64,000 nt of DNA from a phage. Below are positions 1 through 32,916 of this stretch, one piece after another. Position 1 is the first letter of the stretch. Every line of letters begins with the position of its first letter. The translations under genes were made by a program, and so were the position numbers. The notes beneath the pieces are model-generated. The model searched no databases. It saw only the letters and a program-made list of their open reading frames with translations, and had not been told where the DNA came from. The stretch lies in NCBI GenBank assembly GCA_010671865.1, contig GCA_010671865.1_4083.1; one strand, given 5' to 3'.

Positions 1-305
1 ACTGTCTGGTGGTGACCAACCCAAAAGATAGCTTTTGAGTTAATGTTATTACAACCCCATCCTTTCCCCATCTTTTGGTGAATAGCAAATACACAGGAAT
101 CATACAAATTAATGCTCAGACGTTCTTCGTCTGCATGGATAGTTACACCATCAATAGATAGTGTATATTTGAAATCCATAGCCCCCTCACTTCGTGCACG
201 AGAACTAAAGACCAGATATCGATGAATTATGGTATTGATTTTATCTGTCCATCCATCAACACATTTGGATGCACATAATGTAAAAAGATCATGATTGTAG
301 TTCAT
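1..305 (-). CDS. hypothetical protein (5' part only; gene runs off window start)
   Basis: minus-strand ATG near 305, frame open to position 1; co-directional with downstream array; hand-read, approximate. Confidence 0.4.
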   Translation of the reverse strand, partial: MNYNHDLFTLCASKCVDGWTDKINTIIHRYLVFSSRARSEGAMDFKYTLSIDGVTIHADEERLSINLYDSCVFAIHQKMGKGWGCNNINSKAIFWVGHHQT

Positions 306-4740: not shown

Positions 4741-5279
4741 AATTCAACCCTCAATATTTTATCAGCAATTGATATAACCTTATCATTGAATACATTACCA
4801 ATCTCAATCCTTATATACATAGCAGGTGGAATCTTTCCTTGTAGTGAATAATATGTTTGTATACCTAAGTACTCATTATCTGATAATGAAAATTTGATTC
4901 TCTCCATATCAATGTCTGTTACTGGTAAATCTATCATTTCATAATGGTAGTCAACGTTTTCAGTGTATATTTTATCGAAGTAATTTGAATAATCACTACT
5001 AATGTAGATGCTATCATCACGAATAATTACTTTATAATCAGAAGGTTCAAATTTATCTTTACAGGAAAAGAATGCATCATCTATTTTCTCTTCTCTTATA
5101 CCGAATAACATTTTACCATCATATTTTACATCAAGAATACTACCTAGTATATTAATGGTACAATGCTCATCAATATTATGATGTAATGAACGTTTTTTGT
5201 ATTTTGGGTTAATGAAAATTTTCATTAATTTTATACAAATGTCAGTAATGCATTTTACATTCTCATTTTCTATGTACAT
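4737..5279 (-). CDS. hypothetical protein
   Basis: 180-aa ORF, ATGA-type overlap with neighbours; no clear motif. Confidence 0.5.
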   Translation of the reverse strand: MYIENENVKCITDICIKLMKIFINPKYKKRSLHHNIDEHCTINILGSILDVKYDGKMLFGIREEKIDDAFFSCKDKFEPSDYKVIIRDDSIYISSDYSNYFDKIYTENVDYHYEMIDLPVTDIDMERIKFSLSDNEYLGIQTYYSLQGKIPPAMYIRIEIGNVFNDKVISIADKILRVEL

Positions 5280-9695: not shown

Positions 9696-10256
9696 TTATT
9701 GACATAATAGTTCCTTATACATATGATGTACTTTACAAATCTCATTATAGTATTTCATATCAATGTCATTTGTATTAAAAACGGAAACAGACAATACTGC
9801 TAACTTATCAATTAAGTAATTATTATCGGCGTACTGTTTTAACTTATTGAACATATAGATGCATTTTATGCTTAATTCATCATGCAACACACTGTTCTGA
9901 AAAATATTCTCTTCAGTATTAGGAGATAAGTAATCTTCAATTATATACGATAAACTACTATCGCAATCTTTATAGATTGAAATTGATGGATGTAATGTGT
10001 CATACATTACACTAAACAGAACACCGTCATATGTGGATATTAAACTATTATTGGAAACAGTAGGATGATAATATTTCAGTACTGAAAACTTTGAACAATC
10101 AGTGCAGTAAAAATGATCCATCCCTCGACGACTTTCGTATGAGAATAGTTTACTTGTATATTCAATCCCTTTGGTGCGACGGATTGTTTCATGCATTTCT
10201 GCACATTGCATTAAAATTACCATACGTTCAAACGCAATATCTAAATCATCGTACAT
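9696..10256 (-). CDS. hypothetical protein, FQ-motif superfamily
   Basis: 186-aa ORF; motif EENIFQNSVLHD. Confidence 0.6.
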   Translation of the reverse strand: MYDDLDIAFERMVILMQCAEMHETIRRTKGIEYTSKLFSYESRRGMDHFYCTDCSKFSVLKYYHPTVSNNSLISTYDGVLFSVMYDTLHPSISIYKDCDSSLSYIIEDYLSPNTEENIFQNSVLHDELSIKCIYMFNKLKQYADNNYLIDKLAVLSVSVFNTNDIDMKYYNEICKVHHMYKELLCQ

Positions 10257-10437
10257 AACGGATATCCTTCTTCAGCGAATTAATATATTCCAAAATAACT
10301 TGTTCCTGATATTGGGTTCCCAAGTACATCAGGACTTTCAACTCTTTGAATTCAGTACTATATGAGTCTGTTTGCATCATTCTAGTAGAATATATATTGA
10401 ATAGTTTAGCAATGTCATTTTGGTCTATTATTTTCAT
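10246..10437 (-). CDS. hypothetical small protein, family B (LGTNYQE-type)
   Basis: 63-aa ORF; motif LGTQYQEQV. Confidence 0.55.
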   Translation of the reverse strand: MKIIDQNDIAKLFNIYSTRMMQTDSYSTEFKELKVLMYLGTQYQEQVILEYINSLKKDIRYVR

Positions 10438-10636
10438 ATATTCTCTTCTGGATTAGTTCCTGTAAGTGCTGAATATAACCCTTCATTGCAACATCCTGTT
10501 TGTTAGAGCCAACGAAGAACAAGAGCTTAAAGTCATGGTAATCCATTTTTGGTTTAGTAGTGAACCATATGTCCCACACTGCACTCACAGTTCTCATGTA
10601 TTCAATTCGATTAAATGTTTTTGAATACTTCATCAA
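10415..10636 (-). CDS. hypothetical small protein, family B-like
   Basis: 73-aa ORF; motif VGSNKQDVA. Confidence 0.5.
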   Translation of the reverse strand: MMKYSKTFNRIEYMRTVSAVWDIWFTTKPKMDYHDFKLLFFVGSNKQDVAMKGYIQHLQELIQKRIYENNRPK

Positions 10637-11147
10637 TGTTAATCGCCAATAAGTTAATATACAAATTACTGTTAAATGCTATCTGCAATTCCATATAGAA
10701 CTGAATGATAGCATAGTCAGGGTCAGTACACGATAGTTGAAAACACTGTTCGTCAAATGCATTGTAATTGTACTTAGGGATGTGAATTTCACGCTTCAAA
10801 TCAGGTTGACCCCACTTCATCGCATACACACCAATGTTATTGTTCTTTTTCCTTTTCTTAAATGTTAATTGTTGAATATTTCCAGCGTTGTCTAGGAAAA
10901 TAGTATTATTCGACACAGGTGCACCAATAGAAAACAATGATGTATCAATTACGTGTGTCTCACGCACCTCACACTTCTGGAATGCCCCAGTACCCTGTAA
11001 TACATAATGAAAATTGTACTTCTCATTAACAACAGTACTAGGATCGATTAAACCAGTACTGCATTTTTTGAGTACTGGTACAATGGTGCGAATCTTTTTT
11101 GATAAATCTTGTAATGCATCAAAGTCATTGATGTTAACTTTCATCAC
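10611..11147 (-). CDS. hypothetical protein, FQ-motif superfamily
   Basis: 178-aa ORF; motif DEQCFQLSCTDP. Confidence 0.55.
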   Translation of the reverse strand: MMKVNINDFDALQDLSKKIRTIVPVLKKCSTGLIDPSTVVNEKYNFHYVLQGTGAFQKCEVRETHVIDTSLFSIGAPVSNNTIFLDNAGNIQQLTFKKRKKNNNIGVYAMKWGQPDLKREIHIPKYNYNAFDEQCFQLSCTDPDYAIIQFYMELQIAFNSNLYINLLAINIDEVFKNI

Positions 11148-11593
11148 TCGAATGTAGCCTCTTCAGTAGTAACAAAATTGGTTAGTGTATCCAGTTCAGC
11201 AGTGTCAAGATAAAATACATCTAGTACAGATTTCTGATATATTACACTGAATGTGCATAGATTGTCAAGTGTCCCTTGTTCATAAACAGTACTACCCTGG
11301 AAGTACCCTTCTTCAGTACTCAGGGATAAAATATCTGAAATTTTAAAAGATTCTTCAGTTGCATGTCTTTCTATATTAACTATATTGCCGTTTCGGTTCA
11401 ATGAAATATAATCGTATGCTAACTCAATTAGACTATAATTATCCGCATTAGTGTCAAATAAAGCGACAATTTTTCGTCTCAATCTCTCATCGTGATCATG
11501 GTTTTCATCAGCTAAGTATTCAGGATTTTCTTTGAAGAATTTAACGACGCGTAGAATATCATTTGCTTTCTTGATTGCACTTTCGTAACTCAT
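11144..11593 (-). CDS. hypothetical protein, FQ-motif superfamily
   Basis: 149-aa ORF; motif EEGYFQGSTVYE; MSxxSAIKKA N-terminus. Confidence 0.6.
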   Translation of the reverse strand: MSYESAIKKANDILRVVKFFKENPEYLADENHDHDERLRRKIVALFDTNADNYSLIELAYDYISLNRNGNIVNIERHATEESFKISDILSLSTEEGYFQGSTVYEQGTLDNLCTFSVIYQKSVLDVFYLDTAELDTLTNFVTTEEATFE

Positions 11594-11898
11594 AATAATT
11601 CAACCACTCCATCTCTAAAGTACATATAACTACCACCATTGGATACTGTGAATTCTATTGTCCCCAATAATATATTATATTTTTTTATTTCACATGTAGT
11701 ACTTGTAGTGTAAGGCTCACCATCTCCTAAGTACATTGACATATGACATAGAACTTTTCTACCAGCATATTTCTCTTCAAACGATTGTTCAAAACTATGC
11801 ATAATTTGATTTAAAGCTGAAATGTAATTAATAAAGTCAGGTATTTCTGTCAATGAATTATAAACCGTACAAAGTGAATCAAATTCATTTTTAGTCAT
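11590..11898 (-). CDS. hypothetical protein
   Basis: 102-aa ORF; 4-nt overlaps; no family motif. Confidence 0.5.
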   Translation of the reverse strand: MTKNEFDSLCTVYNSLTEIPDFINYISALNQIMHSFEQSFEEKYAGRKVLCHMSMYLGDGEPYTTSTTCEIKKYNILLGTIEFTVSNGGSYMYFRDGVVELL

Positions 11899-12212
11899 TA
11901 TATTTCTATCTCAATGTAATCCTGTGTGATTAAGTAATTCCAATGATACTTCACCTGCTTTTGTAATTCAATTAACGTAAAGAAGTTGATCGATTTATCC
12001 CACACGAGCGATTCCTGGAAAATAAATGATTCATGTTCATCGTAATAATCACACTCTAAAAAATCAGGTATATATTCACTATCGTGAATGTATTCAACAA
12101 ATGAACTAGCTTGGCATTTCTTTACTACTAGTAATAATGAATTATCATGATCAAACAGATACAATAAACTAATTTCACCAGGGACGTACTGAACACTGAA
12201 TAAGTTTTTCAT
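11898..12212 (-). CDS. hypothetical protein, FQ-motif superfamily
   Basis: 104-aa ORF; motif ESFIFQESLVWD. Confidence 0.6.
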   Translation of the reverse strand: MKNLFSVQYVPGEISLLYLFDHDNSLLLVVKKCQASSFVEYIHDSEYIPDFLECDYYDEHESFIFQESLVWDKSINFFTLIELQKQVKYHWNYLITQDYIEIEI

Positions 12213-12661
12213 TCTATACCTTCTGGATCTTTACGAAGTTCTTCGAAATCCAAATAAAATCGAGGACAGTTAACACTCTTTAAGTACCACATAATAACTA
12301 ATGCTTCAAGTACTTCATCATCGTAAACAGTACTGTTTTGGAAGTAATACTCTTCACTATCCCACGGACCTTCCAGTACTTCATAATTCAAAATTAATGG
12401 TTTTTTGCGATTAATAAAACGAATGCTACCATTTTCAACATAACTAATAAATTCTGCATCTCTATTGTATTCAGAAAACGATATAGGACTATTGGAATTC
12501 AACCCAAGAATAACCCTTACACCAACGGAGTTATTATACATTTCATCCTTGTAGTAGTTGCCGTTCTCGGCTTTGTACACTTCTTTGAACTTTCCTGCCT
12601 TTATATCGTCAAAGTATCCATGTAGTTCTTTTGCTTTTTCAAGAGCACTTTGTAATGACAT
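12209..12661 (-). CDS. hypothetical protein, FQ-motif superfamily, MSL subfamily
   Basis: 150-aa ORF; N-term MSLQSALEKAKELHGY; motif WDSEEYYFQNSTVYD...IMWYLK. Confidence 0.65.
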   Translation of the reverse strand: MSLQSALEKAKELHGYFDDIKAGKFKEVYKAENGNYYKDEMYNNSVGVRVILGLNSNSPISFSEYNRDAEFISYVENGSIRFINRKKPLILNYEVLEGPWDSEEYYFQNSTVYDDEVLEALVIMWYLKSVNCPRFYLDFEELRKDPEGIE

Positions 12662-13127
12662 TACCTTCTCCTACAGTATTCTCTACATATTCATAATCAA
12701 AATAGAAACTACTGGAGTCAATACTTTTGAAATACCACATAATTACAATAACATCTAATTCTTCTTCATTGTACAACGTACTATTCTGGAAGTAATATTC
12801 TTCACTATCCCACGGTCCTTCCAGTACTGAATAAGGAATGATAGTGTCATCAGCATCACTATCTGTGTTGTAGATGGTAATATCTTCATTACGACAATAA
12901 CTAATGTACTGATTGTACATATGATATTCACAGTTATCACTGTCACCAGTATCAGTGTGCAGTACTAATGTTTCTGCACATATCTCGGACTCGTCATAAT
13001 CGTCACGGTCTTTTACAAAAAATTCAGTATCAGATGTTTTATATACACCTGGTACTGAACCTTCCTGTACCATAATCATGTACTCATGAATCTTCTTTGC
13101 TTCTTTCAATGCACTTTGTAATGACAT
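12639..13127 (-). CDS. hypothetical protein, FQ-motif superfamily, MSL subfamily
   Basis: 162-aa ORF; N-term MSLQSALKEAKKIHEY; motif WDSEEYYFQNSTLYN. Confidence 0.65.
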   Translation of the reverse strand: MSLQSALKEAKKIHEYMIMVQEGSVPGVYKTSDTEFFVKDRDDYDESEICAETLVLHTDTGDSDNCEYHMYNQYISYCRNEDITIYNTDSDADDTIIPYSVLEGPWDSEEYYFQNSTLYNEEELDVIVIMWYFKSIDSSSFYFDYEYVENTVGEGNVITKCS

Positions 13128-13570
13128 TACAAATCCCCTGTACTTAAATATTCACATGCTCCCCAGTCAAGAAAGAATGGTTCAAAATTCAATTCCTTAA
13201 AGTACCACAACACAACCAAGGAATCAAGAATTTCTTGGTTAAAAATGAGACTCTGTTGGAAGTAATACTCTTCAGTACCCCACGGGCCATCAAGTACCCC
13301 GAAGTCAACAGGTGTATTTGTTGTGTCAAAAGTAATCTTAGTACCTGGAATATATACAAAAAAATTAGTATATTGACTACATGAAGAGTACTGTATAGTA
13401 TTGTCTTTATCCTGTCCCATAAGTAAAATATCATCAGAGTATGTCTTTATACCTGATAGATAATACTCATCACCAAATGCACTTACTTTATCACCATAGA
13501 ACCCACTTTTTATGTTATCGTGGAAGTGATGTATTCTGTGTGCTAGTTCAAGTGCACTTGCTAAACTCAT
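13127..13570 (-). CDS. hypothetical protein, FQ-motif superfamily, MSL subfamily
   Basis: 147-aa ORF; N-term MSLASALELAHRIHHF; motif WGTEEYYFQQSLIFN. Confidence 0.65.
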   Translation of the reverse strand: MSLASALELAHRIHHFHDNIKSGFYGDKVSAFGDEYYLSGIKTYSDDILLMGQDKDNTIQYSSCSQYTNFFVYIPGTKITFDTTNTPVDFGVLDGPWGTEEYYFQQSLIFNQEILDSLVVLWYFKELNFEPFFLDWGACEYLSTGDL

Positions 13571-14037
13571 ATATCCTCTTTAATAACTCGTAGTAGATCC
13601 AAGTCCAAATAGAAGCTAGGACAATCTGTATTATTAAAGTACCACAGAATGACAAGCTTGTCAAGTACATCTTCCTCGTAGATAGTATTCTGCTGGAAGT
13701 AGTACTCTTCACTTCCCCAGTCATTATCCAGTACTGAATACGGAAGATGTTTCTCTGCTGCACCAGATATAATGTCAGAATCTTGTATTAAAATATCAGC
13801 ATCACGACAGAAGTACATGTAATTATCTTCCAAATTAACATCACACCCATTGAGTGTTGTTTCAGAAGAATCTAAGTTTTCTTCATACATGTGAATGTAC
13901 TCACTACTGTCATCGTATCTCATTCGACAATATGATTTACCTTCCTTGAATAGATATCCATTAAGACAATTTGCTACAATTTCTTTGCTGCATAAATCAA
14001 TTAACTTCGCAATCTCTAATGCTCTTTCTAAACTCAT
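13567..14037 (-). CDS. hypothetical protein, FQ-motif superfamily, MSL subfamily
   Basis: 156-aa ORF; N-term MSLERALEIAKLIDLC; motif WGSEEYYFQQNTIYE. Confidence 0.65.
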   Translation of the reverse strand: MSLERALEIAKLIDLCSKEIVANCLNGYLFKEGKSYCRMRYDDSSEYIHMYEENLDSSETTLNGCDVNLEDNYMYFCRDADILIQDSDIISGAAEKHLPYSVLDNDWGSEEYYFQQNTIYEEDVLDKLVILWYFNNTDCPSFYLDLDLLRVIKEDI

Positions 14038-14038
14038 T

Positions 14039-14530
14039 TCAACCCCTGTTAATACCGTTATCTACAGTTTTCTTTACGTATTTGTAATCGAAATAGAAGT
14101 TCCCAGAACCAATACTTTTAAAGTACCACATAATTATAATAACATCAAGTACTTCATTATCATATACAGTACTTTGTTGGAAGTAATACTCTTCACTATC
14201 CCACGGACCTTCCAGTACTTCACTCGGAATTATAATGTCATTGGAATCGCTGTCAGTACTGTTGATGGTATCTGTATCATTAATATAGACCATGTACTCA
14301 TTATGCATATTAATGAAGCATTCATAATCATTAGGGTCGGTATCTAGTATGCACGTTTCTGTATCCAGTACACACGTTTCTGTATCTGAGTAGTCATTAT
14401 TAAGGAGGTTATCCGGCACATAATATTGAGTACTTGTGTCTTTGAAAACACCGTAAACTGAACCTTCTTTTACCATATTCATGTACTCATGAATCTTCTT
14501 TGCTTTTTCCAATGAACTCTGTAATGTCAT
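14039..14530 (-). CDS. hypothetical protein, FQ-motif superfamily, MSL subfamily
   Basis: 163-aa ORF; N-term MTLQSSLEKAKKIHEY; motif WDSEEYYFQQSTVYD; internal TETC[VI]LDT tandem repeat. Confidence 0.65.
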   Translation of the reverse strand: MTLQSSLEKAKKIHEYMNMVKEGSVYGVFKDTSTQYYVPDNLLNNDYSDTETCVLDTETCILDTDPNDYECFINMHNEYMVYINDTDTINSTDSDSNDIIIPSEVLEGPWDSEEYYFQQSTVYDNEVLDVIIIMWYFKSIGSGNFYFDYKYVKKTVDNGINRG

Positions 14531-14539
14531 TTTATAATC

Positions 14540-14899
14540 TCATATATTGAAATAATAATTATTCGTTCTTGATGGGGATGGATTAAATACGTTTTCTTTT
14601 TCAAATCTCTTCATTTCATTTTGCAAAGAAACCATTTCTTCAAATGTACAGGAGTACTTATTCTTATCAAACACTAATGCTTCCTGAAATAGTTCACCAT
14701 CGTCCAGTACTGTATAATCTATAAGACTCTCAGATTCATAGTCATAGTCGTCATGTGATACATGAATAAATTTAAAACAAGAATCTTTGTAATGCATATA
14801 TAAACTCAACTCATGTTCCGAGTCGCCCTTAATAAGATTACAGCACAAGTCCCATCCTTTAGGTAACTTATAATAGTACATAGAATAATCATATGTCAT
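14540..14899 (-). CDS. hypothetical protein, FQ-motif superfamily (LFQE-LVFDK subfamily)
   Basis: 119-aa ORF; motif DGELFQEALVFDKNKYSCTFEEMVSLQ. Confidence 0.65.
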   Translation of the reverse strand: MTYDYSMYYYKLPKGWDLCCNLIKGDSEHELSLYMHYKDSCFKFIHVSHDDYDYESESLIDYTVLDDGELFQEALVFDKNKYSCTFEEMVSLQNEMKRFEKENVFNPSPSRTNNYYFNI

Positions 14900-15252
14900 T
14901 CTTGAATTCCTAAATTGAATTTGTATTCTTGATTAATACTTGCATTGGGTTTATGCAAAGCAGCATACTCTTTCATTTCATTTTGTATTGCAATAACTTC
15001 TTCAAATGTACACAAGTACTTCTTATCAAATACTAATGATTCTTGGAATAGTTCTGCGGTATCCATTAATGTATAGTCCGGCATATCTTGGTGTGGATAC
15101 TGTAATGAACTGTAATCAATGAATGTAAATTTACCCTGAGTGTAATGAATATACTCATTTGCACTGTGCATTAAATCACCTTTGTTTAAATTACAAAAGT
15201 ACTGATAACTGTGCTTGAAAGTATGTACTGATATTAAAAAATCAAATTCCAT
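14896..15252 (-). CDS. hypothetical protein, FQ-motif superfamily (LFQE-LVFDK subfamily)
   Basis: 118-aa ORF; motif TAELFQESLVFDKKYLCTFEEVIAIQ. Confidence 0.65.
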   Translation of the reverse strand: MEFDFLISVHTFKHSYQYFCNLNKGDLMHSANEYIHYTQGKFTFIDYSSLQYPHQDMPDYTLMDTAELFQESLVFDKKYLCTFEEVIAIQNEMKEYAALHKPNASINQEYKFNLGIQE

Positions 15253-19190: not shown

Positions 19191-19710
19191 CTGTGTATGT
19201 TTTCACCCTTAGCGATTCAAAATCCCATACATCACTGATTGTACCATTGTGCCTGTAATCATAATATTCTACTAATACATTATACAATAACTTCAACGAT
19301 ACAAATTCATGATTCCACGGAGCTTTATTCTCATGAACACATTTGGTGATATAAGGTATAATATATAAACTAAACAACACTAATGGTGAATGTATACATT
19401 GCATTTGAAAATATTCTTCTTCTTGCATACAATGTTCAGGAATAATTAGATCATAATGTGTCTCAAATAAATGTAAACCTATTGTGGTTTTTTTCGTATC
19501 ACATGCGTACCATATTGTACTATCCGAAATAAATGGAATGATACCATTATTGTTTGCAATGTACATCATATGGTAAGAGCGATTTGTCTTGTTAAATATC
19601 TCGATACTTTCGATATTACTACAAATCATGTATTCAAGACAATCAATGATCTTATCTTTAAATGCACCAATTTCATTGAATGTCATTGATTTCTGCACGT
19701 CACTGCTCAT
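19183..19710 (-). CDS. hypothetical protein, FQ-motif superfamily
   Basis: 175-aa ORF; motif EEEYFQMQCIHS. Confidence 0.6.
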   Translation of the reverse strand: MSSDVQKSMTFNEIGAFKDKIIDCLEYMICSNIESIEIFNKTNRSYHMMYIANNNGIIPFISDSTIWYACDTKKTTIGLHLFETHYDLIIPEHCMQEEEYFQMQCIHSPLVLFSLYIIPYITKCVHENKAPWNHEFVSLKLLYNVLVEYYDYRHNGTISDVWDFESLRVKTYTGE

Positions 19711-20219
19711 ATGTTCTCCTTAAAAAAATTCAAATACTCTTCATTGAAAGCATATGTATCATCTTTTTTGTTATGCACCACATAATCATAAAGAGCTATG
19801 AATGCAGGGATTATGATCTTACATGATTTATTATTGTATTTGTACTGCTCCAAATCAACGGTATTCAATTTAGCAATAAGCATAGCAACAAAGATATCTT
19901 CATGGCGGTGTACTGTACTGTACTGAAAATATTCATCCTCTCCAATATCAGGATGATATAACGGTATATCCAAATTATTACGAATTGACATTTTATATTT
20001 TTGTAATGCAGCTAAATGCATGAACCACAATCTATCTTCATTGAAATATGGAAAAATAATTTGGTCTGTGCTAACAAAAATTTCCTCATTTTTATCGTAT
20101 TCCACAAGAGGTGCATACATTTTATTTTTTGCAGATCTAATAATTAAATTAAAAATATAATGAATCTTATGAACTGCACTTGATGCATCTTCGTATGTAC
20201 TTGGGATTATGAAACTCAC
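19707..20219 (-). CDS. hypothetical protein, FQ-motif superfamily
   Basis: track ORF 19707..20381 trimmed to in-frame GTG preceded by AAAGGAGAA RBS (alternative starts possible); motif EDEYFQYSTVHR. Confidence 0.45.
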   Translation of the reverse strand: MSFIIPSTYEDASSAVHKIHYIFNLIIRSAKNKMYAPLVEYDKNEEIFVSTDQIIFPYFNEDRLWFMHLAALQKYKMSIRNNLDIPLYHPDIGEDEYFQYSTVHRHEDIFVAMLIAKLNTVDLEQYKYNNKSCKIIIPAFIALYDYVVHNKKDDTYAFNEEYLNFFKENI

Positions 20220-20301
20220 TATATGTTCTCCTTTAAAATGATTACACATGATAACAGCTTTGCACTTCTTTGTCAATACCAAAACGAAAAAAGCCCATAT
20301 C

Positions 20302-20808
20302 TTACGATACAGGCGTGCTGGGCATGTTGATTTGAATTTCATTGTACAAATCATCAATATATAGACATGAAAAAAACACACTATCTTGTACTATATTGTT
20401 GTGATAAAGCATTTTAAATACTACATAAAAAAATAAATCAATATCATCGTGGACTAAATTCTGCTGGAACCACCACTCGTCTGTTAAATCTTGTGCATTA
20501 AAATCATCAGGAACTTCAATGAACGACATATCACAATCTTCTTTGTACTCAAACCACATGTCGTCATTCGGATAACGTTCATGCTTCTCTGGGTAACAAT
20601 TGCTGGGATTAAATGTTAAAATATTAAACCCCGTAGAGCAACGTTCTTTATTTAAAAATGTATTATTCCATACCTGATATTTTTCACCAACATCAAGCTC
20701 TTCTGTTACTGATTTTATTGCACATAATGTACTGTATATTGTTTCTATCTTGTGAACATATTTAAATGCAGCATCTAAGCTGAACTCTAAATCATACATG
20801 TACTGCAT
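20302..20808 (-). CDS. hypothetical protein, FQ-motif superfamily
   Basis: 168-aa ORF; motif DEWWFQQNLVHD. Confidence 0.6.
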   Translation of the reverse strand: MQYMYDLEFSLDAAFKYVHKIETIYSTLCAIKSVTEELDVGEKYQVWNNTFLNKERCSTGFNILTFNPSNCYPEKHERYPNDDMWFEYKEDCDMSFIEVPDDFNAQDLTDEWWFQQNLVHDDIDLFFYVVFKMLYHNNIVQDSVFFSCLYIDDLYNEIQINMPSTPVS

Positions 20809-25242: not shown

Positions 25243-25552
25243 TAGGCTCCTGTTTAGATTCTTTCATTAGTACTATCATCTTATGTACTAATGGCATAGG
25301 AAACTCTAAATCCCATACTAATGATTCCTGAAAGTATTCCTCTGGTGATAAAGTACTTAAATCTTTAATATCAACGTGCTTGTATATTTTATTTTCGTAA
25401 TTAACAAATGATATATATAAATCACTAACATAAGAATCATAGGTAATTGTGAATGGCTTACCCTTGTAATCCATTACATCTCTACATAGACTACTTTTGA
25501 TATATGTATGTTCAAATGATTTATATACCTTGAGTTGTATATTAGTTTTCAT
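25208..25552 (-). CDS. hypothetical protein, FQ-motif superfamily
   Basis: 114-aa ORF; motif PEEYFQESLVWD. Confidence 0.6.
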   Translation of the reverse strand: MKTNIQLKVYKSFEHTYIKSSLCRDVMDYKGKPFTITYDSYVSDLYISFVNYENKIYKHVDIKDLSTLSPEEYFQESLVWDLEFPMPLVHKMIVLMKESKQEPNGDYEEHTVEY

Positions 25553-25817
25553 ATTTCTCTTTATTAGCTTGTTTGGTTTTATAGTGAATTAAATCTATTA
25601 ATGTAATCAAGTACAACGTCAAATAGTACTCTTGTTGATCTGTACCTAATGATACAAAGAACTTGTGCTCATAGATTAAAACCTGTTTCTCTTCAAATGG
25701 ACATTTAATCCTCTGTATAGGCTTAAGTAAATGATAGTACTTATTAAATCTATGATACATTTCTAGTTCTGTCAGTACTTTCATATTAAACACATACTCC
25801 ATTAGCAGTAGCATCAC
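25542..25817 (-). CDS. hypothetical small protein, family B
   Basis: 91-aa ORF; motif LGTDQQEYY. Confidence 0.55.
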   Translation of the reverse strand: MMLLLMEYVFNMKVLTELEMYHRFNKYYHLLKPIQRIKCPFEEKQVLIYEHKFFVSLGTDQQEYYLTLYLITLIDLIHYKTKQANKEKYEN

Positions 25818-26007
25818 GTAAAGCTGTCAAATACTTCTGTACGGCTTGCTCTTGCTTATTTGTACCTAAAAGTATATACATCCATAATTCACTGTAATGT
25901 ACATCTTGTGTATAAGGGTTGTTGTAACTTTTTGATAATATAGCATCAAATTCAGATGCATGAACCCTTGTGAACTTAAGAATATCTTGTTGTGTTATGA
26001 TTCTCAT
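25786..26007 (-). CDS. hypothetical small protein, family B
   Basis: 73-aa ORF; motif LGTNKQEQA. Confidence 0.6.
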   Translation of the reverse strand: MRIITQQDILKFTRVHASEFDAILSKSYNNPYTQDVHYSELWMYILLGTNKQEQAVQKYLTALRDATANGVCV

Positions 26008-26219
26008 ATCTTTTCCTGAACTATCTGCATAAGAATCCCTATGTGTGAATTAACAGTTCTCTCTTGATGCTGTGTTCCTAAGAGTGTCAGTACTATCATC
26101 TCTGAACGCAAAAGATTTTTTTCAAGTTCACTTATATCAGTTCTTGAATCAAGTGCCATATATTTGTGATTATTCTTCCTGAATAGTGCCAAGTACTCTT
26201 GGTTTGATATTATCTTCAT
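26004..26219 (-). CDS. hypothetical small protein, family B
   Basis: 71-aa ORF; motif LGTQHQERT. Confidence 0.6.
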   Translation of the reverse strand: MKIISNQEYLALFRKNNHKYMALDSRTDISELEKNLLRSEMIVLTLLGTQHQERTVNSHIGILMQIVQEKI

Positions 26220-26431
26220 AGTTTACTTTTAATTTCCATTAAAAGTGCTCTAATATGCTCATTGACAAATCTCTCTTGGGAATCTGTGTCTAGGGTGAGA
26301 AGCATTCTTAAATCGGAACCTCTGATGGTATATTCTAAATCATTCTTTGATTCTCGCATAAGTTTCTGAAAGGATGAGAAGTGTAATCCCATGAGTTCAA
26401 TGTATTCTGCTGTTCCTAGTGGTTTTGGCAT
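26216..26431 (-). CDS. hypothetical small protein, family B
   Basis: 71-aa ORF; motif LDTDSQERF. Confidence 0.6.
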   Translation of the reverse strand: MPKPLGTAEYIELMGLHFSSFQKLMRESKNDLEYTIRGSDLRMLLTLDTDSQERFVNEHIRALLMEIKSKL

Positions 26432-26649
26432 TTTAGTTCAATAGCTCGTTTAAGTGTATTAATATAATCTTTAATGTCGTGTTCTTGATAGTTCGTTCCA
26501 AGGGTAGCTAGAACATAGACTTCATTTCTCTTAATAATTTTATCCATATCTGGTATATCTGATGTGTTAATGACGAAGAGCTTCAAAAACAGTCCATTTA
26601 TGATTGTTAGGTATTCTACATCGGTAATGATTTTCATTTGCATTTGCAT
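26416..26649 (-). CDS. hypothetical small protein, family B
   Basis: 77-aa ORF; motif LGTNYQEHD. Confidence 0.6.
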   Translation of the reverse strand: MQMQMKIITDVEYLTIINGLFLKLFVINTSDIPDMDKIIKRNEVYVLATLGTNYQEHDIKDYINTLKRAIELKCQNH

Positions 26650-26855
26650 TTTCTCAGTACTGATTCTTTAAGTTCATTGATGTAGCACTCTACATATTCT
26701 TCTTGTAGGTTTGTTCCGATATGTAACAGTACTCTTAAATCTGCTCTCAGTACTTCTTTGTCATCTTCATCTATATCAGACAGTGTTATGTTTAAGAATT
26801 TACTTGAACTCTCTATAAGTAATATTACTGAATCACCTTTGCTTAAAATTTTCAT
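26634..26855 (-). CDS. hypothetical small protein, family B
   Basis: 73-aa ORF; motif IGTNLQEEY. Confidence 0.6.
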   Translation of the reverse strand: MKILSKGDSVILLIESSSKFLNITLSDIDEDDKEVLRADLRVLLHIGTNLQEEYVECYINELKESVLRKCKCK

Positions 26856-27063
26856 AATCTCTTTTTGCTTTCCTCGCCAAAAGGTACATATACGATTCTT
26901 CGTATTGTGCTTGGTAGTTTGTGTTTAAGAGTCGAAACAACTTCTGTTCTGCTAGAACGAGTTGCTTATCTTCATAACAACGATAGCGTATCAACTTTTT
27001 GTATTCGATGTTGATTACATCCATTACTATAAGCCCATGTTCATCATCTGTCAAGTGTTTCAT
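26833..27063 (-). CDS. hypothetical small protein, family B
   Basis: 76-aa ORF; motif LNTNYQAQY. Confidence 0.6.
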   Translation of the reverse strand: MKHLTDDEHGLIVMDVINIEYKKLIRYRCYEDKQLVLAEQKLFRLLNTNYQAQYEESYMYLLARKAKRDYENFKQR

Positions 27064-27302
27064 GCATTTTTTCTTTTTCTTATATGTTTAGTTAAAAGGT
27101 ATATTAGTTTTCTGATGTATTCTTCTTGATAGTTTGTTCCTAAGAGTGCAAGAAGTTTTGCTTCAACTAAAGCTAGTTGTCGTTCTTCGAATGTGTGTTC
27201 CAGTATGTACTTGGGGTTTGATTTTTTAGCGTAAGCACTATTAGTCTTCATTACAATCTTATGATATTCATTAGCTGTTAGGATTTTTAAATACTTGATC
27301 AT
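27060..27302 (-). CDS. hypothetical small protein, family B
   Basis: 80-aa ORF; motif LGTNYQEEY. Confidence 0.6.
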   Translation of the reverse strand: MIKYLKILTANEYHKIVMKTNSAYAKKSNPKYILEHTFEERQLALVEAKLLALLGTNYQEEYIRKLIYLLTKHIRKRKNA

Positions 27303-27522
27303 GTATCTTTTCCTTTATAGAGAATTTAAGATATCGAAGCATACTTTCAATGTAATACTCTTGTCTGTCAGTGCCAAGAAAGTACATGAGTTGAATGTAT
27401 AAAACTTCTGCACTCCTTTCCGCTGGAGACTTGTTTGTGTCGTTTGGAAGTTGATTTGTATGTTTTCTTGATTTAATTAGTCGTTCTTTTAACTCATCGT
27501 CTGTTAAGTATTTCATTTTCAT
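27271..27522 (-). CDS. hypothetical small protein, family B
   Basis: 83-aa ORF; motif LGTDRQEYY; close paralog of 27494..27748. Confidence 0.6.
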   Translation of the reverse strand: MKMKYLTDDELKERLIKSRKHTNQLPNDTNKSPAERSAEVLYIQLMYFLGTDRQEYYIESMLRYLKFSIKEKIHDQVFKNPNS

Positions 27523-27748
27523 TTACTTTTTCCTTAATAGTGATTTTAAGATATCTAATCATACGTGCAACATATTCCTCTTGTCTATCAGTTCCCAGAA
27601 GATATGGTAGTGATTGGAATAATACTTCTGCACTCCTTTCTGCTGGGGTTTGGTTTAGGTCAATTGGACGTTTATTGGTATATCTCTTGGCACGAACTAA
27701 TCTCTCGACGTATTCATTATAGGTTAAGTATATCATTTCATTTTGCAT
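27494..27748 (-). CDS. hypothetical small protein, family B
   Basis: 84-aa ORF; motif LGTDRQEEY. Confidence 0.6.
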   Translation of the reverse strand: MQNEMIYLTYNEYVERLVRAKRYTNKRPIDLNQTPAERSAEVLFQSLPYLLGTDRQEEYVARMIRYLKITIKEKVNENEILNRR

Positions 27749-27968
27749 TTACTTTTTCCTTAATACTCATTATAAGATGTTCAATCATATTTTGAACCAT
27801 AAATTCTTGTTTATCAGTTCCAAGAACGTATGGTAGCTTCTGAAACAATACATTTGCAGATACTTCAGATATTGATTGATTTGGAACGAACTTAAGAGTA
27901 ATGTTTTTGGTTTTTAACATCTTCTCTTGAAATTCTTCATTCGTTAAGTATATCATTTCATTTTGCAT
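27738..27968 (-). CDS. hypothetical small protein, family B
   Basis: 76-aa ORF; motif LGTDKQEFM. Confidence 0.6.
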   Translation of the reverse strand: MQNEMIYLTNEEFQEKMLKTKNITLKFVPNQSISEVSANVLFQKLPYVLGTDKQEFMVQNMIEHLIMSIKEKVNAK

Positions 27969-28184
27969 TTACATTCTCTCATATATATTTTGGGTTAAAA
28001 GGTCAATCCAGATTTCCACATATCGTTGTTGGTGTTGCGTCCCTAACAGTACACCCAACTTAGCTTCACACTCTAATAACAATCTGGTTTTGTATGGTAG
28101 ACTTTGGAATCCTATAGTAGCATCTAATTTGGTAATTGCATAGTTGATTCGGATGAATCTTTCTTGCAATGTGATGTTGATCAT
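27969..28184 (-). CDS. hypothetical small protein, family B
   Basis: 71-aa ORF; motif LGTQHQQRY. Confidence 0.6.
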   Translation of the reverse strand: MINITLQERFIRINYAITKLDATIGFQSLPYKTRLLLECEAKLGVLLGTQHQQRYVEIWIDLLTQNIYERM

Positions 28185-28471
28185 TTCTTAGTACACCTCA
28201 GTGGTTGGGTCATTTGATGAAAGTACAGCTTACCTCTGATTTCCAGTAGTAACTCCGCGATTAAGCGATTTACTTCTGTATCTTGATAGTTTGTTCCTAA
28301 GAATACACCCATCTTTAACTCACGCATCATAATCATTTTCTTACTGTGTTGAATTTCTGGGTTGTGATAGATTGTATTACGTTTGTGCGTAATTTTTGTC
28401 ATACGCTCGGTATATTCATCTTTACTTAAATTGATCATTTGCATGTTCATCAACCTCACATTTATTTTCAA
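28181..28471 (-). CDS. hypothetical small protein, family B
   Basis: 96-aa ORF; motif LGTNYQDTE. Confidence 0.6.
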   Translation of the reverse strand: MKINVRLMNMQMINLSKDEYTERMTKITHKRNTIYHNPEIQHSKKMIMMRELKMGVFLGTNYQDTEVNRLIAELLLEIRGKLYFHQMTQPLRCTKK

Positions 28472-28473
28472 TA

Positions 28474-28740
28474 CTATTCTTTAGTTTGTAGATATAGTTT
28501 TCTTCCAATATATCTCTTAAGTGCGATTATGTATTCATCTACATAATACTCCTGATAGTTTGTTCCTATGAATGCACCCACCTTTAACTCAAGTTTCATA
28601 ATCATCTTATTTCCGTGTTTAATGACTTCTCCGTGATGGATTTCATTAAGTCCAGGTGCAATTTTTACCAGGCGTTCTTTATATTTTGCTTGAGATAATT
28701 TAATCATTTTCATGTTAATTACCCTTACATTTATTTTCAA
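28474..28740 (-). CDS. hypothetical small protein, family B
   Basis: 88-aa ORF; motif IGTNYQEYY. Confidence 0.6.
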   Translation of the reverse strand: MKINVRVINMKMIKLSQAKYKERLVKIAPGLNEIHHGEVIKHGNKMIMKLELKVGAFIGTNYQEYYVDEYIIALKRYIGRKLYLQTKE

Positions 28741-28945
28741 TACTATTCATGAGTTCTATAAGATAGTTTTCTACCTTACCTTCCTGATAGTTAGTCCCTA
28801 GGAAGTTGCACAACACGGCTTCTATGATTTTGATTTTCCTGATATCAGGCTTCAATCTTTTGTTATTGAATATTTGAATCCTTATATCTCTGGATGCATT
28901 TAAACGTTTTTGATATTCATGGTAAGTTAAATGAATCATTTTCAT
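28715..28945 (-). CDS. hypothetical small protein, family B
   Basis: 76-aa ORF; motif LGTNYQEGK. Confidence 0.6.
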   Translation of the reverse strand: MKMIHLTYHEYQKRLNASRDIRIQIFNNKRLKPDIRKIKIIEAVLCNFLGTNYQEGKVENYLIELMNSIENKCKGN

Positions 28946-29160
28946 TTACGTTTAACCTCTCGCTGGAGGGCATCAATTAACATCAGTACAGCATTCTCTT
29001 GATAGTTTGTTCCTAAGACTGAAAGCATCTTTATCTCATTTACTAAAATCAACTTCTTTGAGGGTTCAATAATGTGACTATCATAAACGGCCTTACGTGC
29101 TGGATAAGTTTTCGCCAGTATAACATAAAATTCGTCTTTACTTAAATTAATCATTTGCAT
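28942..29160 (-). CDS. hypothetical small protein, family B
   Basis: 72-aa ORF; motif LGTNYQENA. Confidence 0.6.
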   Translation of the reverse strand: MQMINLSKDEFYVILAKTYPARKAVYDSHIIEPSKKLILVNEIKMLSVLGTNYQENAVLMLIDALQREVKRK

Positions 29161-29369
29161 TTACTTTTAACCTCTTTCTGTAGAGCGTCAATCCATAGAT
29201 CTACATACATTTGTTGATAGTTTGTGCCTAAGAGTGCACCTACATAGAGTTCAGTTACTAGTGCGTGCTTAAGGTTAGCTTGGATGCTCTTATCGCTTGA
29301 TATCATTCTCCTTCTGCTTCCACATGTTTTCAGGAGTCTGATGTATTCAAAGCCTTGTAAATTTCTCAT
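29151..29369 (-). CDS. hypothetical small protein, family B
   Basis: 72-aa ORF; motif LGTNYQQMY. Confidence 0.6.
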   Translation of the reverse strand: MRNLQGFEYIRLLKTCGSRRRMISSDKSIQANLKHALVTELYVGALLGTNYQQMYVDLWIDALQKEVKSKCK

Positions 29370-29581
29370 ATTTTGGATACCACCTTGTTACGTAAGGAAC
29401 TTAATAATACGTCAGTGTAGATGTTTTGATAGTTTGTCCCTACGAAAGCACCCAACTTCATTTCAGCTATTATAACACATTTGTCCTCTTGTGCAATAGA
29501 TTTGTTTAACACAATACTATACACTTTTGATTTGATAGTTTGTAACCTCCAATGATACTGATACTCATTAAGGATTATCAT
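29366..29581 (-). CDS. hypothetical small protein, family B
   Basis: 71-aa ORF; motif VGTNYQNIY. Confidence 0.6.
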   Translation of the reverse strand: MIILNEYQYHWRLQTIKSKVYSIVLNKSIAQEDKCVIIAEMKLGAFVGTNYQNIYTDVLLSSLRNKVVSKI

Positions 29582-29828
29582 TCTCTTTCCTCCAGATTTC
29601 GGTTCTCATGTGTTGGCAGTGTGCATCAATATATTGCTCTATCGATCTGGCGATTGCTGTTTTATCAGTGCCTGTCATCAGTACAAGCATCTCGGCCTCA
29701 CAGTGAAGTAAACGCATGATATCATAGGGTAATATTTCAGATACCGTGTCATAGTGTTTCTGTGCCAGTGTCTGCAATAGTTTACAATACATTTTGTGAT
29801 TTAGTCTTTGTCGCATTGTTTCTTCCAT
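29568..29828 (-). CDS. hypothetical small protein, family B (divergent)
   Basis: 86-aa ORF; degenerate motif TGTDKTAIA. Confidence 0.5.
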   Translation of the reverse strand: MEETMRQRLNHKMYCKLLQTLAQKHYDTVSEILPYDIMRLLHCEAEMLVLMTGTDKTAIARSIEQYIDAHCQHMRTEIWRKENDNP

Positions 29829-30073
29829 TCTCTTCTGGCTTGGCGGGTTTTATCTGATATTTCGTTTCTCAATGCAGAGATATATCGTAGAGTGAACAGT
29901 TCTTGATAGTTAGTCCCTATGAATTTATTAAGATATACATCAGCGTTGACGATATCAGCTTCACGGGAATTATAAAGTTTATTGTTAGTGCGAAGGGTGT
30001 TTAGAAGAGAGAAGAGGGCAGTCTGATACTCAGTGCTTGATAAAGTTTTCATATTTTTCCACAATTCGTTCAT
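29801..30073 (-). CDS. hypothetical small protein, family B
   Basis: 90-aa ORF; motif IGTNYQELF. Confidence 0.6.
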   Translation of the reverse strand: MNELWKNMKTLSSTEYQTALFSLLNTLRTNNKLYNSREADIVNADVYLNKFIGTNYQELFTLRYISALRNEISDKTRQARREWKKQCDKD

Positions 30074-30287
30074 TTAGTTTTATCTGTATAAGATCCATTA
30101 GTTGTTCAAGATAATCGGTACAATATTTCTCTTGATATTGGGTTCCCACAAAGTACAGCAACCATAGCTCATGAACTTTAACTTTCATCTCGTTCCATGA
30201 AAGTGCATCGTCATCGTAGATTACTCTTGCTTCTGGGGTGAGCTTTCGAATTCTAAGTGAATATTCATCGTCCGTCAAGTGTTTCAT
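30030..30287 (-). CDS. hypothetical small protein, family B
   Basis: 85-aa ORF; motif VGTQYQEKY. Confidence 0.6.
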   Translation of the reverse strand: MKHLTDDEYSLRIRKLTPEARVIYDDDALSWNEMKVKVHELWLLYFVGTQYQEKYCTDYLEQLMDLIQIKLNERIVEKYENFIKH

Positions 30288-30442
30288 TTACATTTATCCC
30301 TTATTAGATTTGTGAGTGCAACTATGTGTTCATGGATATAAAAATTTTGATGAGAAGTTCCAAGAAAGTACAGCATCCATCCCTCACTCTGCTCGACTTC
30401 TAGTTTAGTATCGAGTTGGTCAGATATGTTAATGAAAACCAT
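30284..30442 (-). CDS. hypothetical small protein, family B (52 aa)
   Basis: hand-translated ...LGTSHQNFYIHEHIVALTNLIRDKCK; ATGA overlaps with both neighbours; below track cutoff; approximate. Confidence 0.45.
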   Translation of the reverse strand: MVFINISDQLDTKLEVEQSEGWMLYFLGTSHQNFYIHEHIVALTNLIRDKCK

Positions 30443-31965: not shown

Positions 31966-32056
31966 ATTCGTAATACCCCTTTATCGAAGTCGCTAAGGTT
32001 ACCCGCCCTTTAGCCCCCTACGCATTTTGCCATAGTCCAATCCCTTTTATTTCAAA

Positions 32057-32125: not shown

Positions 32126-32147
32126 CAGTACTAGATCCCTTTACGCA

Positions 32148-32827: not shown

Positions 32828-32839
32828 GATAAAACTCCT

Positions 32840-32912: not shown

Positions 32913-32916
32913 CTTT

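Follow-up and report, generated by a model that had tools for sequence, protein, structure and literature searches.

Immunity proteins against polymorphic toxins (SUKH/SMI1-KNR4 and other Imm families) are encoded in arrays, as Zhang, Iyer and Aravind reportedly described in 2011-2012, and their presumed role is the neutralisation of diverse protein effectors. Large eukaryotic DNA viruses carry multigene families, such as MGF110, MGF360 and MGF505 of ASFV and the ankyrin/PRANC genes of poxviruses, while Ocr, ArdA and Arn are small, acidic, early-expressed anti-restriction proteins that mimic DNA. Closer to the locus treated here, Hua et al. (2017; PMC5646251) noted tandem gene arrays in the jumbo phages 121Q and G, and Simoliunas et al. 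(2013; PMC3622015) reported "~10% paralogues" in RaK2. These reports concern the same phage group and long, head-to-tail arrays of small related genes, but the arrays receive one or two sentences, without a family definition (PMC5646251, PMC3622015). The "very similar genes" of Hua and colleagues are an ill-fitting description of the family analyzed below, in which identity between paralogues is 13-41%; the phrase may concern a different array of that genome, e.g., phrog_4148. What is new beyond the earlier reports is the age, selection, fold and cross-genus synteny of the array.

The 64-kb stretch of DNA analyzed (the window) derives from an Asteriusvirus jumbo coliphage and is 99.6% identical to SHEFM2K, G17 and Sharanji. 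Five small genes drew attention in a first-pass annotation, whose coordinates proved exact: the ORFs are consecutive, all lie on the minus strand, and neighbors abut or overlap by 1-23 nt (Table 1). They were found in 28 of 36 related records, and in 121Q their orthologues are genes 374, 373, 372, 371 and 370 for paralogues 1 to 5, respectively; paralogue 1 also corresponds to PBECO4 gp188 and paralogue 5 to phAPEC6 gp442c. All five proteins are acidic (pI 4.05-4.67, net charge -10 to -26) and match PHROG 9317 end to end (E about 1e-55 to 1e-66, profile positions 1 to ~156 of 160; 8e-60 for paralogue 1). With a profile built from the five genes, E values of 1e-51 to 1e-72 are obtained both for orthologues from other phages and for the five themselves, whose match is by construction.

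Table 1. Features of the five-gene locus and the surrounding FQxS array (window coordinates)
Feature	Position (nt)	Strand	Description
FQxS array	367-25552	(-)	motif [DE][DE]x[YFLMW]FQxS[TL][VIL]; extends past the window's left edge
Nearest out-group paralogue	11144-11593	(-)	149 aa, phrog_12674
Paralogue 1	12209-12661	(-)	150 aa, pI 4.67, net charge -10; ORF call
Paralogue 2	12639-13127	(-)	162 aa, pI 4.05, net charge -26; ORF call
Paralogue 3	13127-13570	(-)	147 aa, pI 4.25; ORF call
Paralogue 4	13567-14037	(-)	156 aa, pI 4.10, net charge -21; ORF call
Paralogue 5	14039-14530	(-)	163 aa, pI 4.05, net charge -20; ORF call
C-terminal block, paralogue 1	12242-12386	(-)	145 nt; direct-repeat family D1
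C-terminal block equivalents, paralogues 2-5	12690-12834, 13160-13304, 13597-13741, 14081-14225	(-)	65-78% nt identity
N-terminal block, paralogue 1	12614-12664	(-)	repeat families D3, D6
N-terminal block equivalents	13080-13130, 13523-13573, 14015-14037, 14483-14533	(-)	61-83% nt identity
Tandem repeat, paralogue 5	14340-14386	(-)	TRF: period 21, 2.2 copies, 88% matches

Immunity-protein arrays resemble this arrangement, being composed of small, often acidic alpha+beta single domains that occur as diverged tandem paralogues with a conserved framework and a varied surface; the FQxS proteins neither match the Pfam SMI1_KNR4/SUKH models nor have a predicted SUKH fold. With the ASFV and poxvirus families the array shares dozens of tandem paralogues, a location in non-structural, presumably early regions and a copy number and content that vary by isolate, although sequences and folds are unrelated and the FQxS genes belong to a bacterial virus. 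The very low pI of the five recalls Ocr, ArdA and Arn, all of them small proteins, but no sequence or fold similarity to Ocr or ArdA was found that would place the FQxS proteins among the DNA mimics, and their charge is concentrated in loops that belong to a beta-sheet domain, whereas a DNA mimic carries it along a helical, elongated surface resembling DNA.

Each of the five proteins carries, 40-60 residues before its C-terminus, the FQxS motif: an acidic pair, a hydrophobic residue, Phe-Gln, any residue, Ser, [TL] and [VIL]. Scanning the window for this motif gives 40 ORFs: 39 belong to the array and lie on the minus strand, and the remaining one, on the plus strand (10171-10365), is a chance match. 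An iterated HMM converges at 38-39 members; in all, the array has 38-40, some long (~145-205 aa) and others short (~103-137 aa). A point missed in the first-pass annotation is that the C-terminal block extends beyond the five genes and characterizes a whole family, at least 38 genes strong. F and Q never vary among the 37 members aligned, and the acidic and Ser positions beside them are well conserved; family members are acidic, with a median pI of 5.0 versus ~8 for other small ORFs on the same strand. The nearest out-group paralogue has a like architecture, MSYESAIKKANDIL being followed by STEEGYFQGSTVYE, and neighboring array genes match phrog 12674, 13866, 15629 and 28680, with weaker cross-matches among these PHROGs. 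Iterated profile searches together with the common FQ motif show that PHROGs splits a single superfamily into separate families; 9317, 12674, 13866, 15629 and 28680 are all annotated "unknown function," and no motif or fold is described for them either.

Beyond the window, 121Q yields 38 family matches, in an array that ends before genes 417/418, and Klebsiella phage RaK2, to which the distant cluster P0036 led, has at least 28 members in a syntenic array that ends before its dam/cytidyltransferase genes gp088/087. The window array is likewise co-directional and upstream of a dam methyltransferase/cytidyltransferase block. Among 1.84 billion proteins the family forms 145 clusters at 50% identity, with EExxFQxS in nearly all of the clusters listed. 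A tblastn search of phage records with another distant cluster, P0144, gave no match. Pfam contains no match informative of function, none of the five has a family match at E<=1 in NCBIfam or PADLOC, word-index protein searches for named homologues recover only Asteriusvirus "hypothetical proteins," and the literature searched holds no characterization of the FQxS family and no report of partner, phenotype or expression for any member.

The pattern that had been noticed among the five genes, conserved termini around a variable core, is borne out by their alignment and diversity profile. Mean pairwise identity between paralogues is 0.53-0.68 over alignment columns 1-15 (the N-terminal ~15 aa), 0.07-0.29 over the centre (columns 26-105) and 0.42-0.80 over the C-terminal block (columns 106-150), which makes the conserved-ends pattern real and far beyond chance. 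Divergence is not uniform along the length, the contrary outcome that the first-pass annotation had named; the observation of the pattern is therefore upheld, but not the process that was read from it. The N-termini are MSLQSALEKAKELHGY, MSLQSALKEAKKIHEY, MSLASALELAHRIHHF, MSLERALEIAKLIDLC and MTLQSSLEKAKKIHEY, the fifth protein beginning with MTL instead of MSL. The C-terminal block is present in all five as W[DG][ST]EEYYFQ[NQ][SN]..., then [IV][IV][ML]WY[FL][KN], and in paralogue 1 it encodes VLEGPW-DSEEYYFQNS-TVYDDEVLEALVIMWYLKS, corresponding to model helices 93-97, 103-109 and 115-129; the N-terminal block of that gene encodes MSLQSALEKAKELHGY, the start of an amphipathic helix (residues 3-21). 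To call the centres "unrelated" holds by sequence for nine of the ten paralogue pairs (centre-only hhalign probability 0.1-23%); the centres of paralogue 5 and of its nearest relative, paralogue 2, are 49% identical (hhalign 98%), and by structure the models of paralogues 1 and 5 share a beta-meander.

Both conserved ends are kept at the protein level and not at the DNA level, and a conserved DNA or RNA element beneath the C-terminal block was rejected on this ground. Gene conversion or concerted evolution behind the conserved ends was also rejected, because synonymous sites of the C-terminal block have diverged (dS 0.56 to saturated, DNA identity 65-78%). The first 16 codons of paralogues 2 and 5 are 90% identical in nucleotides, with a dS of 0.14, over a stretch too short to interpret.

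The genes had been taken for products of recent serial duplication, of which the tandem origin holds and the recency does not. Across 8-12 Asteriusvirus genomes each paralogue forms a separate orthologue clade; orthologue dS is 0.10-0.42, whereas dS between paralogues ranges from 0.56 to saturated and is mostly >1, even inside the conserved C-terminal block, and the five proteins are only 32-41% identical. Separate clades and near-saturated synonymous sites together place the duplications before the origin of the genus. The five genes are thus ancient tandem paralogues, the PHROG 9317 branch of a ~40-member family that takes up some 25 kb of a leftward-transcribed region, and their central sequences drifted beyond recognition between paralogues long ago while the conserved termini were retained. 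No inter-gene DNA repeat above 83% identity is found at 11800-14900, and on this count and that of centres conserved among orthologues the genes do not have the features of diversity-generating retroelement targets.

Comparison of orthologues also disposes of the "hypervariable" middles. Each centre is conserved between phages (dN 0.04-0.15), nearly identical in the orthologue alignments, and therefore not hypervariable. The diversifying selection read from the pattern does not fit a centre that has an orthologue dN/dS of 0.12-0.45 and is a folded beta-sheet rather than an insert; values for the C-terminal block (0.09-0.26) are only mildly lower, and gene-wide values are 0.10-0.36, with paralogue 2 the most strongly constrained of the five (0.10). 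Within each paralogue lineage the centre has been held by purifying selection since divergence. The few 15-codon windows with a dN/dS of about 1 or more lie in loops and are based on few substitutions: columns 76-95 of paralogue 4 (~1.0) and columns 41-55 (2.6) and 91-105 (1.35) of paralogue 5. Each duplication may have been followed long ago by a phase of diversification, and region-averaged values below 1 neither prove nor exclude a few positively selected surface sites. A conserved-ends, variable-middle profile among neighboring paralogues is hence no sign of recent duplication or of ongoing diversifying selection, and an orthologue comparison is needed.

The fold was compared from AlphaFold2 models of two long-form proteins, paralogue 1 (pLDDT 90.2, pTM 0.84) and paralogue 5 (pLDDT 86.6, pTM 0.81), in which the elements come in the same order. 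A single compact alpha/beta domain is predicted, with an N-terminal amphipathic helix (19 residues, pLDDT ~95), a 6-7-stranded beta-meander that makes up the "variable centre," and a C-terminal helical segment, where an acidic turn is followed by the invariant Phe-Gln. In paralogue 1 the FQ motif is modelled in a short helix (pLDDT 96-98) beside a hydrophobic helix. We infer from these models that the conserved ends pack together as a structural framework; judged by secondary structure, the variable residues are probably surface-exposed and the invariant F and Q buried. Conservation of the ends could reflect folding constraints only, which would not speak to binding. The PDB contains neither a sequence match for the five proteins nor a match to the predicted fold, and Foldseek matches in BFVD are confined to uncharacterized proteins of 121Q, SP27, RaK2, GAP32, Serratia BF and Yersinia fHe-Yen9-04, among them a 121Q paralogue (TM 0.87). 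EExYFQ(G/S) looks like the protease site of TEV/3C (ExxYxQ-G/S), but this was dismissed as coincidence, the motif lying in a confidently folded helix; Q is followed by a variable residue (N, Q, E, Y, L, K, M, G), and those regions of 121Q that were examined contain no annotated 3C-like protease.

Several features bear indirectly on when these proteins are made. The sequence ATAAATA is the late promoter in CBB and GAP32 (PMC5259590). The late-promoter motif TATAAATA occurs 0 times in the 64 kb, against 15.2 +/- 3.7 expected, and of the five copies in 121Q at least three immediately precede gene starts, two of them those of annotated virion structural genes. Eleven perfect sigma-70 promoters are located in the region transcriptionally upstream of the array (52 to 32 kb); inside the array sigma-70-like promoters are not enriched (103 found versus 119.5 expected), and one 11/12 match lies within paralogue 5 (14256-14229). 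Acidity and early placement are generic to many phage proteins.

The explanation that we consider best, with the balance tipping modestly in its favor, is that of an ancient family of folded paralogues serving, early or midway in infection, as a repertoire of intracellular binders directed at host or defence proteins; we infer that this is the likeliest role. Soluble, strongly acidic and non-virion, the proteins would be made before late gene expression and would act as intracellular binders or inhibitors, each paralogue showing a distinct sheet and loop surface to a distinct host or defence target, such as a nuclease, a toxin or another protein that binds nucleic acids. If the conserved framework tolerates changes of surface, this would account both for the retention of many diverged copies and for the variation in gene content between phages. 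A bolder and rather doubtful version envisages a "binder library" on a fold without a solved relative, in which a rigid helix/FQ framework would bear freely evolvable sheets and loops in ~40 copies, repertoires would differ between jumbo-phage genera, each copy would neutralize a different host defence or host-takeover target or deliver it via the invariant FQ module to a common partner, and the array would be a main determinant of the broad host range of RaK2-like jumbo phages.

Against these readings stands the very improbable model with which the locus was introduced, that of recent serial duplicates in which diversifying selection, acting on an interaction surface, is still pulling the middles apart. 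It draws on the genuine conserved-ends profile, the few loop windows with dN/dS of about 1 or more and the copy number and content that differ between phages, but it is largely refuted by the orthologue clade of each paralogue, by paralogue dS near saturation even in the conserved block, and by orthologue centres that are nearly identical, with low dN/dS; the windows above 1 depend on very few substitutions. It is unlikely that the C-terminal acidic turn, FQ and helix dock all members to one partner, perhaps a host or phage protease or chaperone, while the variable sheet selects substrates, in parallel with the viral F-box and ankyrin adaptor families. The F-Q invariance, kept in nearly all of the distant clusters listed, is stricter than fold maintenance usually needs, and in 121Q genes for ClpP-like and HslV-like proteins follow downstream, transcribed in the direction of the array; the predicted placement of FQ in a confident short helix by a hydrophobic helix nevertheless fits a core role.

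Capsid filling, an idea proposed for jumbo-phage tandem arrays by Hua et al. (2017; PMC5646251), would make the array mostly dispensable duplicated DNA that occupies a larger capsid, its similar ends being residual. Single slots can indeed be lost or swapped, but the reading is quite improbable here: most genomes carry all five genes in intact form, purifying selection acts on them, the models are confident single domains, and RaK2, which belongs to another genus, shares the array as well as its placement ahead of the dam/cytidyltransferase block. Copies that are old, individually conserved and confidently folded are not junk. Hardly probable at all is packaging and ejection as internal proteins, with the conserved N-terminus acting as a capsid-targeting signal. 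The T4 internal proteins IPI-III possess such an N-terminal signal, and the FQxS proteins have a conserved N-terminus of ~15 aa, followed by variable sequence, and are acidic like the anti-restriction protein IPI*. The virion proteome of phAPEC6 (62 proteins), however, includes none of gp400-469, among which is gp442c; the N-terminus is predicted to be an integral helix of the fold; direct reading reveals no (L/I)-x-E protease site after the N-termini of the five; and the window lacks the late promoter.

The FQxS family accounts for about 7% of the genes in these 350-kb phages. With old, conserved and confidently folded copies, a predicted fold that lacks a solved relative and an array placed as in RaK2, the family is a candidate for supplying proteins of anti-defence or host takeover, and its fold a candidate scaffold, small and stable, whose surface could be changed extensively.

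Gene content at the locus differs between phages. In fEgEco12, ph0011 and Turkey3 the slot of paralogue 5 contains two other genes, one a short-form member of the family (114 aa long in fEgEco12) and one of 61 aa, and a profile search indicates the same swap in TH47, making four phages in all; A4 and Turkey5 carry different paralogue sets, and one metagenome contig has an apparent chimera of paralogues 2 and 1, with one gene fewer. The alleles of paralogue 1 in different phages fall into two classes, one 92-100% and the other about 69% identical; for the C-terminal tail of the ~69% allele, recombination with an A4-type paralogue was examined, and nucleotide identity was 0.82 against 0.78, in one window. 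The internal tandem repeat noted in paralogue 5 was confirmed by TRF: its 21-bp unit encodes DTETCVL-DTETCIL, of which the model shows copy one as a low-confidence loop (residues 47-53, pLDDT <50) and copy two as a strand (58-63). This 7-residue loop repeat is the sole recent duplication at the locus, and its copies vary in the orthologue alignment, with one in UE-S1 and A4 and two in the other six genomes.

Five open reading frames lie end to end on the minus strand (see table), with overlaps of 1-23 nt or a 1-nt gap between neighbours. They are the five consecutive genes claimed in a first-pass annotation of the sequence, and an origin by tandem duplication is borne out. The common MSL start holds for paralogues 1-4 (each gene is also named here by its left coordinate), but paralogue 5 (14039) begins MTL. 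Only 18 columns are invariant in the five-way alignment; the N-terminus contributes M1, L3, L7 and A10, the C-terminus V-L..W..EEYYFQ...L...WY...F..D. Scored in 10-column windows, the five paralogues share a mean pairwise identity of 0.53-0.68 in columns 1-15, falling to 0.07-0.29 in columns 26-105 and rising again to 0.42-0.80 in columns 106-150, so that conserved ends with a variable centre are indeed what the alignment and profile reveal. The centres were said to be unrelated. When they were compared by profile-profile methods with termini removed, nine of ten pairs had no significant similarity (probability 0.1-23%), but 12639 and 14039 were clearly homologous (probability 98%, E 2e-14).

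Coordinates of the five paralogues, a tandem repeat, a repeated hairpin, and elements of the modelled 12209 protein
Feature	Position	Strand	Description
Paralogue 1	12209-12661	minus	ORF, 150 aa
Paralogue 2	12639-13127	minus	ORF, 162 aa
Paralogue 3	13127-13570	minus	ORF, 147 aa
Paralogue 4	13567-14037	minus	ORF, 156 aa
Paralogue 5	14039-14530	minus	ORF, 163 aa
Tandem repeat TETCVLDTETCILDT	14340-14386	minus	21-bp unit, within paralogue 5
28-nt hairpin AAAGGGATTGACTCCGGTCAGTCCCTTT	33453-33480, 35717-35744, 39020-39047, 42296-42323	minus	
12209 model, helix	residues 3-21		
12209 model, seven strands	residues 30 to 91		
12209 model, short helices	residues 93-97 and 103-109		103-109 is EEYYFQN
12209 model, helix	residues 115-129		DEVLEALVIMWYLKS
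12209 model, strand	residues 135-138		followed by terminal helix

These genes are one branch of a family of about 40 small proteins with a C-terminal FQ motif, here called FQxS. The signature, [YFLMW..]FQx[S..] after acidic residues, was found by motif scan in 40 ORFs of the window, of which 39 fall within 367-25552 on the minus strand, and an iterated HMM seeded with the five genes and run on the window ORFs converged at 38-39 members. Family members are either long (~145-205 aa, their N-terminal helix being of 'S..A...A..I' type) or short (~103-137 aa). PHROGs divides them into several unknown-function families, phrog_9317 for the five genes and phrog_12674, 13866, 15629 and 28680 for neighbouring array genes, with cross-hits among them. 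Phage 121Q has 38 detectable members and Klebsiella phage RaK2, of a different genus, at least 28 in a 30-kb array; in both phages the array ends just before a dam methyltransferase/cytidyltransferase pair. RaK2-like jumbo phages of two or more genera thus share the family, array position included. Among 1.84 billion representative proteins a profile search returned 145 clusters; about 100 of these fall below 50% identity to every sequence of the window, and nearly all of those listed have [ST]EEx[YF]FQxS[TL][IVL]; Pfam, NCBIfam, PADLOC and PDB sequences yielded no family match. The 2.3-kb five-gene interval itself is 99.6% identical to Escherichia phages SHEFM2K, vB_EcoM_G17 and Sharanji and matches 36 phage records, all from E. 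coli or Salmonella jumbo phages within or near the genus Asteriusvirus (PBECO4, 121Q, phAPEC6 etc.), where every gene under the match is annotated "hypothetical protein". Tandem arrays in 121Q (PMC5646251) and the paralogue richness of RaK2 (PMC3622015) have been mentioned in passing; no description of the FQxS family, its motif, age or fold was found in the literature searched.

Given a 37-sequence family alignment, AlphaFold2 models the 12209 protein with confidence as one domain (mean pLDDT 90.2, pTM 0.84), and the 14039 model has an identical order of elements (pLDDT 86.6). By this order the variable ~60 residues, taken earlier for an insert, form the beta-sheet of the predicted domain, and the conserved ends are modelled as helices that accompany it. 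Foldseek comparison with predicted viral structures matched only uncharacterised proteins, from 121Q (TM 0.87), SP27, RaK2, GAP32, Serratia phage BF and Yersinia phage fHe-Yen9-04. The locus is an ordinary case of lineage-specific paralogue expansion in a jumbo phage, and its moderate interest comes from the size of the family and the unmatched predicted fold.

The duplications are not recent. In a tree of all subfamily members, built with arrays from 12 additional genomes, each window gene heads a separate clade with orthologues from 8-12 phages, the 12639 and 14039 clades being sisters. Between paralogues dS is near saturation in the centre; in the conserved C-terminal block it runs from 0.56 up to saturation, with most values above 1, as against 0.10-0.42 between orthologues. 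Even the conserved blocks are only 61-83% identical in DNA. The duplications are thus much older than the radiation of the genus, and what has kept the termini alike is selection acting at protein level; recent copying and gene conversion are ruled out by the same C-block dS and DNA identity. Within orthologue groups dN/dS is 0.06-0.59 over the first 25 codons, 0.12-0.45 in the centre and 0.09-0.26 in the C-terminal part, and the centres are nearly identical in alignment; the centre is thus somewhat less constrained than the ends, yet under purifying selection. In 15-codon sliding windows dN/dS reaches ~1 or more only in a few loop segments (g13567 columns 76-95; g14039 columns 41-55 and 91-105), with few changes behind each. 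The first-pass annotation was largely right as an observation; its interpretation holds for tandem duplication and the conservation pattern, and is mistaken as to recency and ongoing diversification of a hypervariable centre.

The sole recent duplication at the locus is the internal repeat noted in paralogue 5, confirmed as a 21-bp tandem duplication. Six of eight orthologues carry the heptad twice, while UE-S1 and A4, the latter the most divergent of the eight, carry it once; database clusters of 157-160 aa also have one copy. The 14039 model shows the first copy as a loop of low confidence (residues 47-53, pLDDT <50) and the second as a strand (58-63). The repeat is a slippage-type microduplication in a loop.

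What varies between phages is gene content. In fEgEco12, ph0011 and Turkey3 the slot of paralogue 5 holds a 114-aa short-form family member and a 61-aa gene; TH47 also lacks paralogue 5 by profile search, and A4 and Turkey5 have differing sets of array genes. Gene 12209 occurs as two allele classes, 92-100% and ~69% identical. A metagenome contig (ENA ERZ28642444 scaffold_10318, 318-788) carries one chimeric gene, with a 12639-type N-terminus and centre and the C-terminus of the alternative 12209 allele, between normal 13127-type and 11898-type neighbours, and so has one gene fewer. This could be the product expected from unequal crossing-over in the conserved block, or it could be an assembly artefact, Ns being present in the scaffold. 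A 102-aa gene at 11590-11898, which has no FQ motif, is replaced in Ecwhy_1, fEgEco12, ph0011, Turkey3 and TH47 by a gene of 147-149 aa (4755-5204 in the compared stretches L006/L007) that matches the family HMM weakly (E ~1e-4), a further cassette swap within the array.

The T4-type late promoter TATAAATA has no copies in the 64-kb window (15.2 +/- 3.7 expected), and the shorter ATAAATA, proposed as late promoter in the related phages CBB and GAP32 (PMC5259590), has two (~52 expected). Five TATAAATA copies occur in the 125 kb of 121Q examined, at least three just upstream of gene starts: two at annotated virion structural genes (54; the 472/471 pair) and a third at hypothetical gene 499. This looks like genome-wide purging of the motif outside functional sites. 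All the Asteriusvirus and RaK2 stretches examined (L001, L013, L014, L015, L017) show strong depletion of the octamer.

Transcriptionally upstream of the array, 32001-52000 (minus) contains 11 perfect TTGACA-16/17-TATAAT promoters, 97 promoter-like sites (66.7 +/- 8.5 expected) and 29 terminator-like hairpins (12 +/- 3.1 expected), placed between very small genes in ~80-100-bp spacers. Monocistronic early genes transcribed by host RNA polymerase are arranged in this way; in CBB and GAP32 a cluster of short hypothetical genes that have RpoD-like promoters forms the proposed early region (PMC5259590). A 28-nt hairpin, AAAGGGATTGACTCCGGTCAGTCCCTTT, followed by GCTATTATAT, is repeated four times on the minus strand; with a -35-like TTGACT in its stem and then a -10-like TATTAT, it may serve as terminator and promoter in one cassette. 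Within the array, genes are tightly packed and promoters are not in excess. Between two of the array genes a terminator-like hairpin (20314-20293) and T run directly precede a TG-extended promoter (20276-20248, minus). The mechanically called ORF 19707-20381 probably starts too far upstream; 121Q gene 354, its presumed counterpart from array position alone, encodes 166 aa.

The five proteins are old, individually conserved, confidently folded by prediction, acidic and non-virion. Median pI is 5.0 in the FQxS family, of which the five genes are the acidic extreme (pI 4.05-4.67, net charge -10 to -26), and ~8 in other small ORFs of the same strand. A tentative reading, whose chances at best approach even, is that FQxS proteins would work within the infected cell, ahead of late gene expression, as a set of binders or inhibitors whose specificity would lie in the diverged sheet and loops. 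The F and Q of the motif are probably buried and the variable strands exposed. A variant in which the conserved FQ module is an adaptor that docks a common partner seems unlikely. Slightly less probable again, for genes individually conserved, is the filler hypothesis of Hua et al. That these are packaged internal proteins is very improbable: phAPEC6 gp442c is the orthologue of paralogue 5, and the 62 proteins of the phAPEC6 virion include none of gp400-469.

Other tandem families occur in the window. Immediately upstream of the FQxS array in the direction of transcription are ~25 genes of ~70 aa (~25550-31400, minus; phrog_4148 in the SHEFM2K annotation) with a common '[FL]GT[ND]YQ'-like motif and stray copies at 10246-10437 and 10415-10636. 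A third family, of ~15-20 genes that each encode ~60 aa (phrog_11711, with neighbours that have no assignment), lies at ~51600-56400 (minus). On the plus strand, 56639-63916 holds six or more paralogues in tandem (376-433 aa), which the SHEFM2K annotation calls "regulator of chromosome condensation" (RCC1-like, phrog_4219); the phAPEC6 virion proteome includes proteins named "DNA condensation protein" (gp003-gp010).
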